Virus record (IMG/VR): IMGVR_UViG_3300022602_000036
Span: 1 to 64,000 of that record
Direction: 5' to 3' (one strand)
From: a virus
Length of the DNA: 64,000 nt
The notes below the pieces were generated by a model, which did not search any database, was not told the origin of the DNA, and saw nothing but the letters and a program-made list of their open reading frames with translations. This document shows positions 4,880 through 46,666 of this stretch, one piece after another. The translations under genes were made by a program, and so were the position numbers. Each line of letters begins with the position of its first letter. Position 1 is the stretch's first letter.

Positions 4880-5269
4880 GTGCGCTTACATGAATTTACA
4901 CATAGCCCAAAAAACACTCCAGAGTCAAATTTAACAACGGCTCTGGAGCTTATTCGCAATCGTTACAAAGATCAAGACACACCTCCAAAAATTTCAACAC
5001 AGAGTCTAATCAATCTTGTGCTTAACACAGACAAGACATTTGATTATGACGCACTGGTTGCTGCTAACACTAACAATCCAGCAATTCAAAATATTATCAA
5101 AAGCTACAATAAAGATTATATAGAATTACGTCCGGCCGGTGAAGATAATGATAGCTCAGCAACAGTAGAAAATCCTAAAGGTCAAGATGTAGACCCAAAT
5201 GCACCAGTGGACACAGTTGGTGATATGGCTAAATCCGCGGCCAAAAAACGCGGCGCCGCAGGATTCTAG
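4880..5269 (+). CDS. Hypothetical protein (MRLHEF N-terminus)
   Basis: 129-aa ORF in operon. Confidence 0.7.
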   Translation: MRLHEFTHSPKNTPESNLTTALELIRNRYKDQDTPPKISTQSLINLVLNTDKTFDYDALVAANTNNPAIQNIIKSYNKDYIELRPAGEDNDSSATVENPKGQDVDPNAPVDTVGDMAKSAAKKRGAAGF

Positions 5270-5282
5270 TATTAAATACTAG

Positions 5283-6101
5283 ATGATTCGTTTATTCCCT
5301 GGAGTAGAATTCTATATAACCAACGTCTGTAATCTCACCTGTCGCGGGTGTAATCGCTTTAATAATTTAAATTTCAAAGGACATCAACGTTGGGCAGATC
5401 ATGCGGCTGCATATGAAGCATGGAGTCGTCGTTTAGATCTACCGCAGATTACTATCATAGGTGGAGAACCTACACTTAATCCTGATTTAGAATTATGGGT
5501 TAGTAATCTAAGGCGCCTATGGCCTGACAGTGTTATTATGGTGCAGACTAACGGCACCTATCAACGTCCTGAACATTTAACCTATTGGGACAAATATCGT
5601 GTGGGGTTTGGATTAAGTTTGCATGATCCTGCAACAGCAGAAGAACTAAAAGCCAAGTGGAAATACCATGCTGGCGAAATAGAAGCCTATGTATTCCATC
5701 AATCAACAGTGATCAAACAAGATGATCATTATGTGTTACACAACAGCGACACTGTAAAAGCATTTAATAGTTGTGATATGAAACACGACCATACTATGTA
5801 TCAGGGCAAACTATATAAGTGTCCAGCAATGAGCAATTTACCAGATTTTGATCAACAGTTTGATTTACGGTTGGATACTAGACAACGTGAATTGCTATAC
5901 AGTTACCAACCACTGTCAGCGGACTGCTCAGAAGAAGACCTACAAGAATTTGCCGCAACCGTAGATACACCTATAGCACAATGTGAATTTTGCCCGCAGG
6001 ATCTACAGTGGCACACTGCCCTAGGCGAACTTAAAGAAAATCTACCAAAACCTACGTTTGCTCCGCCAGTAACAGAAGCTGAATTAAAATTCTACAAATA
6101 G
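5283..6101 (+). CDS. Radical SAM protein
   Basis: CNLTCRGC (CxxxCxxC), GGEP, TNG and extra C-terminal Cys. Confidence 0.9.
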   Translation: MIRLFPGVEFYITNVCNLTCRGCNRFNNLNFKGHQRWADHAAAYEAWSRRLDLPQITIIGGEPTLNPDLELWVSNLRRLWPDSVIMVQTNGTYQRPEHLTYWDKYRVGFGLSLHDPATAEELKAKWKYHAGEIEAYVFHQSTVIKQDDHYVLHNSDTVKAFNSCDMKHDHTMYQGKLYKCPAMSNLPDFDQQFDLRLDTRQRELLYSYQPLSADCSEEDLQEFAATVDTPIAQCEFCPQDLQWHTALGELKENLPKPTFAPPVTEAELKFYK

Positions 6102-6185
6102 CTTGACACAACACAATAAATACTTTAGTATTTTAGTATACTATTGTTTTTCACATGCTTGTGCGCCAAGATGATAAATACTTGT

Positions 6186-6773
6186 ATGAAAAACAAATAT
6201 GGTATTATTAAGAAGTGTTTATATTGCGGAAATGACTTTGAAACTAAACCTCGTTTCTTAGATTATTGTTCTCAAAAATGTAAAAATCCTTTAAATAGAG
6301 GAGAATATGATCCCTGGAATAAAGGGGTTAAACTTACAGAAGAACAAAAAGCAAAACAAAATACAAGCGGGCTTACAAAAGGTTGGGGATGGAATAAAGG
6401 CATACCAAATCAACTCCAATCAGAAAAATGGACAGGCAAAGGAAATCCCAATTGGGATGGAAAAATTAATAATCAACGCCCTAAGAATTATGTAGATGAT
6501 GAATTTACAGCATACAAAAGAGAATGTAAAAAAGCAACATATCGTTCTTGGTACGCTATGAAGAAAGAAGGTATGGTTCCCAAATTAGGCAAAAGAAAAA
6601 CAGATTGGCAAATGGATCATATTATTCCGTACGAACAGGGATTTCAATTGGGGATAGATCCTAAAATAATTGGCGGTAGAAAGAATCTAAGATTTATATT
6701 AGGTGAAGAAAACAGAAGTAAATGGGATAGTTTCCAACCTGATGATGTTGTTAAATCTATTATAGGAGATTAA
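6186..6773 (+). CDS. Free-standing HNH homing endonuclease
   Basis: CLYC...CSQKC Zn finger, PWNKG/GWNKG NUMOD-like repeats, DHIIP..NL..N motif. Start moved to ATG 6186 after ATAAATA. Confidence 0.8.
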   Translation: MKNKYGIIKKCLYCGNDFETKPRFLDYCSQKCKNPLNRGEYDPWNKGVKLTEEQKAKQNTSGLTKGWGWNKGIPNQLQSEKWTGKGNPNWDGKINNQRPKNYVDDEFTAYKRECKKATYRSWYAMKKEGMVPKLGKRKTDWQMDHIIPYEQGFQLGIDPKIIGGRKNLRFILGEENRSKWDSFQPDDVVKSIIGD

Positions 6774-6774
6774 A

Positions 6775-7171
6775 ATGTCTTACAGCACAAAAGTGCTTGA
6801 CCATTACGAAAATCCAAGAAATGTTGGAAGCATGAATAAGGAGGATCCGCAAGTTGGCACAGGTATGGTTGGTGCGCCAGCTTGCGGATGACGGAGATGT
6901 AATGAAGCTCCAGATAAAAGTGGAGAATGGAATTATAACAGATGCAAAATTCAAAACCTATGGCTGTGGCTCAGCGATTGCTAGCTCGTCTCTTGTTACA
7001 GAAATGCTCAAAGGCAGAACGCTCAAGGAAGCTGGTGAAATTAAGAACTCAGCGATTGCAGAAGAACTCGCATTACCGCCCGTTAAGATACACTGTTCGG
7101 TGCTTGCTGAGGATGCAATCAAATCAGCTATAGAAGATTATAGGAAGAAACATGATAACCTTAACAGCTAA
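6775..7171 (+). CDS. iscU: Fe-S scaffold IscU, interrupted after Cys37-Gly38 by 7 extra nt containing TGA (candidate programmed bypass, or a split gene/pseudogene)
   Basis: 6775 reads MSYSTKVLDHYENPRNVG...GAPACG then stops; the +1 frame continues GDVMKLQIKV...GCGSAIAS...LPPVKIHC. Confidence 0.9.
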
Positions 7172-7472
7172 TGCCGCAAAAAAAATGCAAGATGCCTTGT
7201 ACAATCGCAAGAAAGGTATAGGCATGCGTATTGGTGTGCGCACCAGTGGCTGTAGTGGTTTTGCTTACTTGCTAGAATTTGCTGATCAAACGTTTGATGG
7301 CGATCTTGAAATAGAAGAACGCGGCGTTACTCTTATAATCAATAAAAAAGACCTAGTATACCTACAGGGTATGGAAATAGATTATACCAAAAAAGGTCTT
7401 AATGAAGGTTTTGAGTTTGCTAACCCTAACGAGAAAGCACGTTGTGGGTGCGGCGAATCATTTACTGTTTGA
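7152..7472 (+). CDS. iscA: Fe-S cluster A-type carrier IscA
   Basis: MITLT, SGCSG and CGCGESF motifs. Confidence 0.95.
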   Translation: MITLTANAAKKMQDALYNRKKGIGMRIGVRTSGCSGFAYLLEFADQTFDGDLEIEERGVTLIINKKDLVYLQGMEIDYTKKGLNEGFEFANPNEKARCGCGESFTV

Positions 7473-43871: not shown

Positions 43872-43945
43872 GCAGGATTAGTTTAATGGTAAAACGAAAC
43901 GTTGCCAACGTCTAGTCACGAGTTCGATTCTCGTATCCTGCTCCA
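43872..43945 (+). tRNA. tRNA-Gly(GCC)
   Basis: Cloverleaf, U73, CCA. Confidence 0.9.
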
Positions 43946-46592: not shown

Positions 46593-46666
46593 GCGGGATT
46601 AGTTTAATGGCAGAACAAGAGATTTCCAATCTTTTGGTGAGGGTTCGATTCCCTTATCCCGCTCCA
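46593..46666 (+). tRNA. tRNA-Gly(TCC)
   Basis: Cloverleaf, U73, CCA. Confidence 0.92.

Follow-up and report, generated by a model that had tools for sequence, protein, structure and literature searches.

A candidate short translational bypass, linked to a homing nuclease, in the iscU gene of a freshwater jumbo phage

The iscU gene of a freshwater jumbo phage probably carries a programmed short translational bypass, or 'stop-hop', a reading to which a probability of about 75% is assigned here. The window analyzed is a stretch of 64,000 nucleotides (nt) that forms the first 64 kb of the 149-kb IMG/VR record IMGVR_UViG_3300022602_000036, which derives from lake water and is estimated to be 42% complete. 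The genome has a GC content of 40% and 28 phage tRNAs, including Gly(UCC) and Gly(GCC). An original prediction made from the letters of the window alone had proposed a short bypass cassette resembling that of T4 gene 60 and linked to a homing nuclease, and comparison with related phages now supports this reading: approximately 82 alleles are interrupted at the same codon, the interruption is linked to the nuclease, and the stem upstream of it shows compensatory changes. As far as sequence can tell, the features by which gene-60-type bypassing is recognized are found together at this locus, namely ORFs (open reading frames) that are colinear when joined, a landing codon able to pair, a slow codon in the A site and a covarying 5' hairpin.

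The iscU, nuclease, promoter-like, iscA and tRNA-Gly(UCC) features of the window lie on the plus strand. The iscU gene starts at ATG 6775, one base past the stop of the upstream ORF, and its first segment (6775-6888, codons 1-38) ends with TGC GGA (6883-6888), encoding Cys37-Gly38. The putative take-off codon is the GGA of Gly38 (6886-6888). It is followed by a 7-nt coding gap (6889-6895) that consists of TGA (6889-6891), a C (6892) and a second GGA, the putative landing codon (6893-6895); homologous gaps of 4-10 nt are found in relatives. After the landing codon, the +1 frame reads GAT GTA ATG AAG, giving DVMKLQ, and forms the second segment (6896-7171, codons 39-129 and the stop), which contains Asp39, Cys63 and His105-Cys106. 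The Pfam NifU_N profile matches the N-terminal piece over profile positions 2-35 (E 4.5e-11) and the C-terminal piece over positions 35-124 (E 1e-34), so that the two pieces abut exactly. Because the profile is contiguous across the gap, deleting the 7 nt restores a colinear IscU. The joined segments hold Cys37, Asp39, Cys63 and His105-Cys106, the full set of residues expected of an IscU/NifU_N scaffold, and the layout proposed in the original prediction is confirmed. The peptide upstream of take-off is ordinary IscU sequence in which no insert-specific residues were seen.

Two Logan contigs carry the same insert. One, of 1409 nt, from a 2017 freshwater run belonging to a separate study, covers 6600-7195 with zero gaps, and the other, with a depth of 64 and from a 2020 run, matches exactly over 6836-6930. 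The same samples also hold insert-less iscU alleles of other phages. Among the sequencing runs listed as containing the locus, none was an RNA run. Since these independent assemblies retain the insert, the assembly error that had been offered as an alternative, with positions 6880-6900 to be checked in raw data, is not the explanation.

Relatives of the locus were collected by several routes. A protein-based search centered on IscU returned 80 viral loci with IscU proteins 79-93% identical, and a search centered on the upstream nuclease ORF returned 37 loci, in all of which this ORF lies directly 5' of iscU. Two DNA pattern scans were added, giving 87 distinct DNA contexts or approximately 82 distinct alleles, a number that varies with the flank length chosen for deduplication. 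The scan pattern imposed the terminal Gly codon and the GAY GTN that follows it, and the approximately 25 insert loci found by protein similarity alone agree. The scan for Cys37 encoded by TGT matched mainly unrelated genes and added only six iscU alleles. A distant DNA search of phage GenBank records gave only three remote iscU/iscA matches, which were uninformative. A scan of prokaryote genomes for the insert pattern found no real iscU insert among the 120 matches listed (of at least 120), which is not proof of absence in cellular genomes. Literature searches found no report of bypassing in iscU.

Within the IscU-centered sample, 76 of the 80 loci read an uninterrupted TGY GGN GAY GT, and four carry an insert at the identical site with differing sequence and length: GGA-TGA-CT-GGA (8 nt), GGT-TAG-A-GGA (7 nt), GGA-TGA-C-GGA (7 nt) and GGT-TAG-TTA-GGT (9 nt, in frame). 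The ORF-centered sample comprises 21 loci with an insert, 14 without and two whose contig ends before the site. Across the 87 contexts, inserts of 7 nt (41), 8 nt (22) and 9 nt (14) predominate, with fewer of 10 nt (5), 6 nt (3), 5 nt (1) and 4 nt (1). The codon following take-off is TGA in 43 contexts, TAG in 26, TAA in 15, TGT in two and AGG in one, and is therefore a stop in 84 of 87. The layout is the same in all of them: a Gly codon, a stop (rarely AGG or TGT), 0-4 nt, a Gly codon and then GAY GTN. The codon at take-off is always GGN, as is the codon at landing; the commonest pair is GGT to GGA (27 alleles), and GGA to GGT occurs in nine, which corresponds to pairing at two of three positions. 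All three stops and all four bases after the stop are represented. The matched GGA codons and the UGA-C stop context to which the original prediction drew attention are thus particular to some alleles and not rules of the series. A hop between the two Gly codons would restore the CGD motif in every insert allele. Parsimony on the tree of IscU proteins requires 12 or more changes of insert state, and close relatives differ in insert length and sequence, with IscU being too short a protein for the tree to separate gains from losses. The shortest insert, of 4 nt, is that of L150 (GGT A GGC), which places the rare Arg codon AGG (3% of the Arg codons in the window) in the A site.

The codons past the gap are under strong purifying selection. 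Among 19 distinct alleles, the C-terminal segment is saturated at synonymous sites (proportion of synonymous differences, pS, 0.81), and the ratio of nonsynonymous to synonymous change (dN/dS) is approximately 0.06 where it can be computed. An open C-terminal frame with the Cys63 and His-Cys106 motifs is kept in 74 of the 78 alleles that have enough downstream sequence, and the other four stop solely at a second insert site described below. In alleles found without the DNA pattern constraint, the Gly-Asp-Val codons from landing to Met41 vary only synonymously. A stop and a frameshift within a coding sequence are the usual mark of a pseudogene, yet it is very improbable that decay, assembly error or removal of the insert at the RNA level accounts for the locus. 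The insert is present in assemblies of different years and studies, and 82 diverged alleles share conserved signals and the low downstream dN/dS. To our knowledge, no mechanism exists for excising 4-10 nt from an mRNA. The genes L091 (3233-4534) and L094 additionally contain an intein of approximately 340 amino acids (aa) at Cys63 (KTYGC|LTSN...SHN|CGSAIASS), across which the C-terminal frame is open for 433 codons. The L091 gene combines this in-frame intein with an 8-nt insert, and three kinds of selfish element therefore occur in one gene family of 130 codons.

The gap is preceded by a 5' stem-loop (6845-6889) whose arms, 6845-6858 and 6876-6889, pair over 14 bp with one G-U. The hairpin of the original prediction is accordingly present at its full length in the window, while only a core of 11 bp (6848-6858/6876-6886) is conserved across the family, the last core pair taking in the first G of the take-off codon. 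The minimum free energy (MFE) of the 67-nt window segment is -27.3 kcal/mol (z = -4.3), and none of 200 shuffled sequences folds as well. When 56-nt segments are compared, the same hairpin forms in all 14 insert alleles, with MFE values of -21 to -28 and a mean of -25.2 kcal/mol, against means of -15.3 kcal/mol for 67 insert-less, nuclease-free alleles (Mann-Whitney p 1e-8) and -11.2 kcal/mol for five insert-less alleles with the nuclease. Ten of the 11 core pairs form in every sequence. Compensatory changes are found at three core pairs, from A-U to C-G (three alleles), from U-A to C-G or G-C, and from G-C to A-U or C-G. Because these changes include a Gln-to-His replacement offset by a synonymous change at an Ala codon, it is the pairing and not the coding that is conserved.

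A Shine-Dalgarno (SD)-like AGGAG (6839-6843) precedes the conserved stem by 4 nt and the end of the take-off codon by 46-50 nt. An AGGAG 3-7 nt 5' of the stem is found in 79 of 82 insert alleles and in none of 72 insert-less alleles. It is encoded in varied frames and contexts, with AAG GAG GAY, AAA GGA GAT, AAG GAG AAT and GAG GAG ACA giving KED, KGD, KEN and EET. The stem and the neighboring AAG GAG are written in codons that are rare for this genome: in 42 ORFs of the window, CCG makes up 7% of Pro codons, GCG 7% of Ala codons and GAG 18% of Glu codons, which bears out the impression that the CCG and GCG codons of the stem are uncommon. The take-off and landing codon GGA accounts for 18% of Gly codons. 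The closest relative of the window, L004 (2890-3003), has neither insert nor nuclease; it keeps a stem of the window type, with AAG GAA in place of AAG GAG, and may be a derivative that lost the insert.

A second insert site was found in the same gene through the four alleles that end early, at ...ELALPP. At this site 2 (LPP|VKIHCS), a 6-nt in-frame insert, TAA or TAG followed by CTA, CTT or CTG, stands after Pro-Pro, and the canonical VKIHCS follows. A pattern scan gave 17 loci, of which 13-14 are distinct; examples are L208:4127-4152, L149:3467-3492 and L367:7538-7563, and the equivalent in the window (7074-7088) is uninterrupted. The L367 insert is perfectly matched (CCG-TAA-CCG), and in the others CUN can pair with the Pro anticodon through a G-U at the middle position. 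An AGGAGG precedes the insert in 14 of 14 alleles and occurs in 12 of 233 alleles without a site-2 insert. A hairpin of approximately 45 nt begins 3-4 nt past the AGGAGG and extends, with its 3' arm, to the base immediately before the take-off codon, which is CCN at this site. The 71-nt MFE is -24.1 kcal/mol with the insert and -11.6 kcal/mol without it, and in the outer helix of 11 bp, pairing reaches 98.6% and four pairs show compensatory changes, as in GGGGAG/CTCCCC to GGCAAA/TTTGCC. The strongest argument that these elements are recoding signals, rather than inherited flanking sequence, is that two independent sites converge on an SD sequence, a hairpin, a stop and a near-cognate codon. 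Three alleles carry inserts at both sites.

Inserts at the Cys37-Gly38 site occur in each of the three frame classes. For this reason, one kind of frameshift or read-through alone cannot serve them all, and a frame-independent hop from Gly to Gly does. The alternative is that recoding depends on insert length and adds one to three residues between Gly38 and Asp39, by a +1 shift for inserts of 4, 7 and 10 nt, a -1 or +2 shift for 5 and 8 nt and read-through for 6 and 9 nt; in one variant, the ribosome slides without re-pairing and decodes the second Gly anew to give CGGD. The UGA-C after the P-site codon and the upstream SD recall the +1 site of prfB, GGT-A-GGC, the allele with the 4-nt insert, places AGG in the A site and resembles a +1 shift at a hungry codon, and the in-frame inserts could be read through, with the CGD and CGGD products being inseparable from sequence. 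This explanation is nonetheless improbable, as it calls for three mechanisms at one homologous site among close alleles whose insert length changes freely on the tree. A P-site tRNA-Gly would be unable to re-pair in the +1 or -1 frame at GGA-U, and within an otherwise invariant motif the added residues would be diverse (D, R, N, E, K, I, P, L). The constant terminal Gly codon, and the Pro-like CCG or CTN at site 2, would be left unexplained. The AGGAG is also approximately 42 nt from the shift site, too distant for a prfB-type effect unless the hairpin brings it nearer. The simpler +1 frameshift adding Asp-Gly, which had been listed as an alternative for the window, cannot serve the 5-, 6-, 8- and 9-nt inserts and fails as a general account. 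Stop-codon reassignment (codes 4 and 25, TAG recoding) was considered and rejected: all stops occur among the inserts, most inserts shift the frame, and the window's ORFs end normally (TAA 28, TGA 10, TAG 4).

A further explanation is that IscU is split, with termination at the stop, separate synthesis of the C-terminal part and non-covalent assembly of the pieces. The second part would start at Met41 (GGAG 6893-6896 with ATG 6902), at TTG 6854 served by AAGGAGG, or through an ATGA overlap in 8-nt inserts. The window offers both the Met41 and the TTG 6854 options, and ATG is present at Met41 in 50 of 82 alleles and the in-frame ATGA overlap in 15 of 82. An SD followed by a hairpin resembles the split ribosome-binding sites (RBSs) of T4 genes 25 and 38. 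Homing nucleases are also known to split genes into working halves, as in T4 genes 39/60 and Aeh1 nrdA (10.1101/2022.08.31.505936). For the 8-nt TGACN alleles (15/82) specifically, a two-piece product is possible. As an explanation of the whole series, a split IscU is quite improbable. Re-initiation at Met41, as the original prediction had allowed, fails as a general route in the 12 of 82 alleles (DVL-K/R/Q types) where the 60 nt past the stop contain no in-frame ATG, GTG or TTG. Upstream initiation is closed to the 6- and 9-nt alleles, whose C-terminal frame is the zero frame, with the stop in it, and L141 has no start on either side. An AGGAG-served start is open in just 12 of 66 alleles, so that the AAGGAGG and TTG 6854 alternative, though available in the window, was rejected as the general role of the AGGAG. 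The Gly-Asp-Val codons before Met41 are conserved with synonymous changes only, and the break would interrupt the cluster-binding loop, Cys37-Gly-Asp39. Several site-2 alleles continue after the insert with GTT, which is no start codon, and the alleles with both inserts would yield three pieces of 38, 65 and 27 aa.

The insert is associated with a free-standing HNH-like homing-endonuclease ORF of 195 aa (6186-6773). The ORF had originally been drawn from 6146; the frame is open from 6144, and the start is most likely the conserved Met at ATG 6186. A CxxC...CxxxC zinc finger lies toward the N-terminus of the protein and a DH...N...N motif toward its C-terminus, and the protein also contains NUMOD3-like WNKG repeats. 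Residues M15, C25, C28, C42, C46, D158, H159, N181 and N190 are conserved in the family, with D158, H159, N181 and N190 being invariant. The original HNH label is sub-threshold: the Pfam HNH match has E 0.011 and 16.3 bits against a cut-off of 21.4, and is seen in 8 of 13 members. Sequence searches of Pfam and the PDB with the nuclease gave nothing above threshold. A structure model has a predicted local distance difference test (pLDDT) score of 70 overall and approximately 90 in the C-terminal domain. The best fold matches of the model are the Gme HNH nicking endonuclease 4h9d (Z 4.1) and T5 SciA (Z 3.8), both under the safe threshold, and a Foldseek search of the PDB found no match at E <= 0.001 (E above 0.3). 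NUMOD3, a homing-endonuclease DNA-binding motif, does exceed the Pfam cut-off in distant relatives of the nuclease. The evidence suggests an HNH fold consistently, yet below threshold. Clustering at 90% identity divides the family into at least 388 clusters, of which almost none is annotated, and no second copy is present in the phage's own genome.

Comparison with nuclease-free loci identifies the nuclease as a discrete indel of approximately 610 nt (6147-6757), flanked by ACTATTG and GAGATT, between the promoter and the RBS of iscU. A promoter-like site TTGACA-17-TAGTAT (6103-6131) with 10 of 12 matches lies upstream of it, and the corresponding block directly abuts ATTGGAGATT-ATG of iscU in the nuclease-free loci L188, L207, L149 and L004. 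The last codons of the nuclease, SIIGD and the stop, overlie and re-create the iscU RBS. The expectation that the insert should co-occur with the nuclease was confirmed in the IscU-centered sample, in which the ORF or a remnant of it accompanies three of four insert alleles and none of 76 insert-less alleles (Fisher p 5e-5). Of 78 insert alleles with enough upstream sequence, 62 keep a copy, as a full ORF in 50 and a remnant in 12, and 16 have none. The loci L188, L207 and L149 have the same 7-nt insert as the window and no nuclease.

Alleles with the nuclease and without the insert lack both the AGGAG and the stem. They are all substituted in or next to GAPACGDVMK, through GSPACG, APSCG, GDLMK or a Val-to-Thr change two residues before, and 74 of 76 nuclease-free alleles read MVGAPACG|DVMKLQ. 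These patterns suggest that the target of the nuclease is the DNA encoding the core motif and that immunity is conferred by either a substitution or a mini-insert. The insert would then belong to a mobile cassette together with the HNH-like, NUMOD3-type homing endonuclease. As it breaks the CGD-coding DNA that the nuclease most likely recognizes, carriers would be immune and yet still make IscU.

A different nuclease domain is associated with site 2. A DUF559 (Vsr-like) nuclease ORF adjoins iscU in 12 of the 17 site-2 loci, directly downstream in eight and upstream as a fusion in four; most of the remaining five loci are at contig ends, and some loci have the DUF559 ORF without a site-2 insert. 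In the upstream fusion, DUF559 (26 bits, above its cut-off of 20.6) is attached to the N-terminal DNA-binding half of the HNH family. Such a domain swap is seen in the 262-aa ORFs upstream of iscU in L208 (3027-3812), L204, L128, L133, L229 and L111, which consist of the zinc-finger/NUMOD3-like half followed by DUF559.

In the proposed mechanism, the ribosome would reach the Gly38 GGA with UGA in the A site. Termination would likely be slow, since a stop after Gly (or after Pro-Pro at site 2) gives a pause; Gly and Pro are the residues released slowest at termination. Once GGA occupies the P site, the ribosome would cover the 3' arm of the stem (-10 to +1), leaving the 5' arm and inner hairpin outside and the loop approximately 21 nt upstream. 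Zipping of the outer stem during the pause may pull the E- and P-site nucleotides toward the exit, unpair the take-off codon and advance the mRNA by a few nt. The tRNA would re-pair at the next GGN, and decoding would resume at Asp39 to give a one-piece IscU (...GAPACG-DVMKLQ...). The AGGAG, brought close to the hairpin's base, may form pairs with the anti-SD sequence and position or stabilize the process, and the hairpin, of roughly 40 nt, is a candidate stimulator of the hop. The frequent GGT-to-GGA pairs imply that two G-C pairs suffice in the P site, as they reportedly do in gene 60 variants and the yeast byps.

Several observations weigh against a programmed hop. Unprogrammed hops in Escherichia coli are inefficient, at approximately 1%. 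The commonest take-off/landing pair is GGT to GGA and not a matched one, an in-frame ATGA stop/start overlap arises in the 15 alleles whose 8-nt insert is of the TGACN type, and the AGGAG-served TTG 6854 start is open in the window as in 12 of 66 alleles overall. Stop read-through is compatible with the sequence alone in the case of inserts that keep the frame (6 and 9 nt, and every one at site 2). The HNH assignment is below the Pfam cut-off. Two alleles, L245 and L333 (GGT TGT T GGA), have a 7-nt insert with the sense codon TGT in the A site; they are sister to the GGT-TAG-TTA-GGT allele and may represent decay or a hop without a stop. Finally, inserts of the same architecture in another gene, described next, have no candidate stimulators.

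This other gene is a phage DNA methyltransferase, in which GGN, a stop, 0-4 nt and GGN stand directly after the DPPYG motif. There are 17 distinct viral alleles with inserts of 6-10 nt (examples among L491-L509 are GGA-TGA-CT-GGA in L509 and GGC-TGA-GGC in L508), and no AGGAG and no consistent hairpin were found upstream of the insert in these 17 alleles. The stimulators therefore appear to be specific to iscU and the insert architecture general. A broader proposal, advanced tentatively and with odds somewhat short of even, is that short stop-hops are a general modular immunity device of phage homing endonucleases. Nuclease-linked inserts of 4-10 nt, built from a Gly or Pro codon, a stop and a near-cognate codon, would break targets in conserved active-site motifs of several genes, namely iscU at two sites and the DPPYG methyltransferase. 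In iscU a two-part stimulator would have evolved twice, with the AGGAG tethering the anti-SD sequence and zipping of the exit-side hairpin pulling the mRNA by 4-10 nt.

Other features of the locus provide context. The iscA gene (7152-7472), encoding an A-type Fe-S carrier (Fe-S_biosyn E 2.5e-19), overlaps the end of iscU. A tRNA search confirmed that the phage encodes tRNA-Gly(UCC) (46593-46666), cognate to both GGA codons and already named in the original prediction as tRNA-Gly(TCC), along with tRNA-Gly(GCC) (43872-43945); tRNA-Gly(UCC) may have a role in the hop. The radical-SAM gene upstream of the nuclease (5283-6101) is likewise an indel relative to L188, L149 and L207, in which the end of the preceding gene (5201-5268 in the window) almost directly precedes the iscU promoter block. 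The distant nuclease relative P0142 is found on contigs of approximately 1 kb, on which the neighboring genes have no family match.

Programmed bypassing in bacteria and phages has rested on a single lineage, T4 gene 60 and its homologues, and shorter counterparts have long been presumed to exist (PMC5009743). The iscU locus would be an independent natural system with an allelic series of more than 80 variants, gaps of 4-10 nt, three stops, many take-off/landing pairs and two convergent sites within one small gene. Its compact candidate stimulators make the hypothesis that exit-side pairing drives sliding directly testable in an mRNA of approximately 60 nt. It would also be the second example of a homing nuclease traveling with a bypass insert, including the replacement of an HNH-like by a Vsr-like domain. 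For annotation, such genes are now called as two fragments or as pseudogenes.

Among known systems, the +1 frameshift of prfB (RF2) depends on UGA-C in the A site and on an upstream SD-like element that acts on the elongating ribosome. Unlike the iscU site, prfB slips 1 nt onto an overlapping codon with its SD 3 nt away, whereas iscU would move 4-10 nt to a non-overlapping codon with the SD approximately 42 nt away. Synthetic stop-hops have a low efficiency. They have been known since 1987, and no natural in-frame stop-hops are known according to a review (PMC5009743). The geometry of the 6-nt in-frame alleles (GGT-TAG-GGC, and CCG-TAA-CCG at site 2) and the frame-independent re-pairing are like those of the synthetic cases, which were artificial and had no stimulators; the iscU hop would be the sole route to an Fe-S scaffold and has conserved candidate stimulators. 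The 'byp' elements of Magnusiomyces capitatus mitochondria are also mobile short inserts that are bypassed in essential genes, with two-out-of-three pairing tolerated (PMC5009743), but they are 27-55 nt long, place an unassigned sense codon in the A site, rely on relaxed mitochondrial decoding and have no nuclease link. The case of phage Hau3 shares a short coding gap and an SD-like sequence 5' of the start of the gap (PMC5009743), but hinges on a rare UUA codon, has been proposed to be regulatory, is unverified and has neither a nuclease link nor a described hairpin.

The closest parallel is T4 gene 60, which takes off at GGA next to a stop, lands on a second GGA, has a 5' stem-loop and is accompanied by MobA (10.1101/2022.08.31.505936, 10.1101/2024.12.09.627546). 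Pairing of the exiting mRNA in its 5' stem-loop, with a loop distance of 26 nt (10.1101/2024.12.09.627546), has been proposed as the driver, a model with which the mechanism suggested for iscU agrees. A preprint on gene 60 homologues states that similar bypassing had gone unreported in other phages (10.1101/2022.08.31.505936). The iscU locus differs in its independent origin, in its target, which is not a topoisomerase, and in its nuclease family, for which searches detected no similarity to the gene 60 context. With 4-10 nt rather than 50, its gap is too short to accommodate a take-off/A-site stem-loop or an in-gap mini-SD. In iscU the stem reaches with its 3' arm to the take-off codon and has a full AGGAG on its 5' side, no additional split interrupts the gene, and take-off and landing codons often differ beyond standard wobble. 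Like gene 60, iscU has a Gly take-off codon in a conserved motif, a stop directly after it, a Gly landing codon that restores the protein and a 5' stem-loop. As in gene 60, a free-standing nuclease, HNH-like in iscU, accompanies the insert, which outlasts nuclease loss in a 'hit and run' manner (10.1101/2022.08.31.505936), and the exchange of MobA for VSR in that system has a counterpart in the Vsr-like (DUF559) replacement in some iscU lineages.

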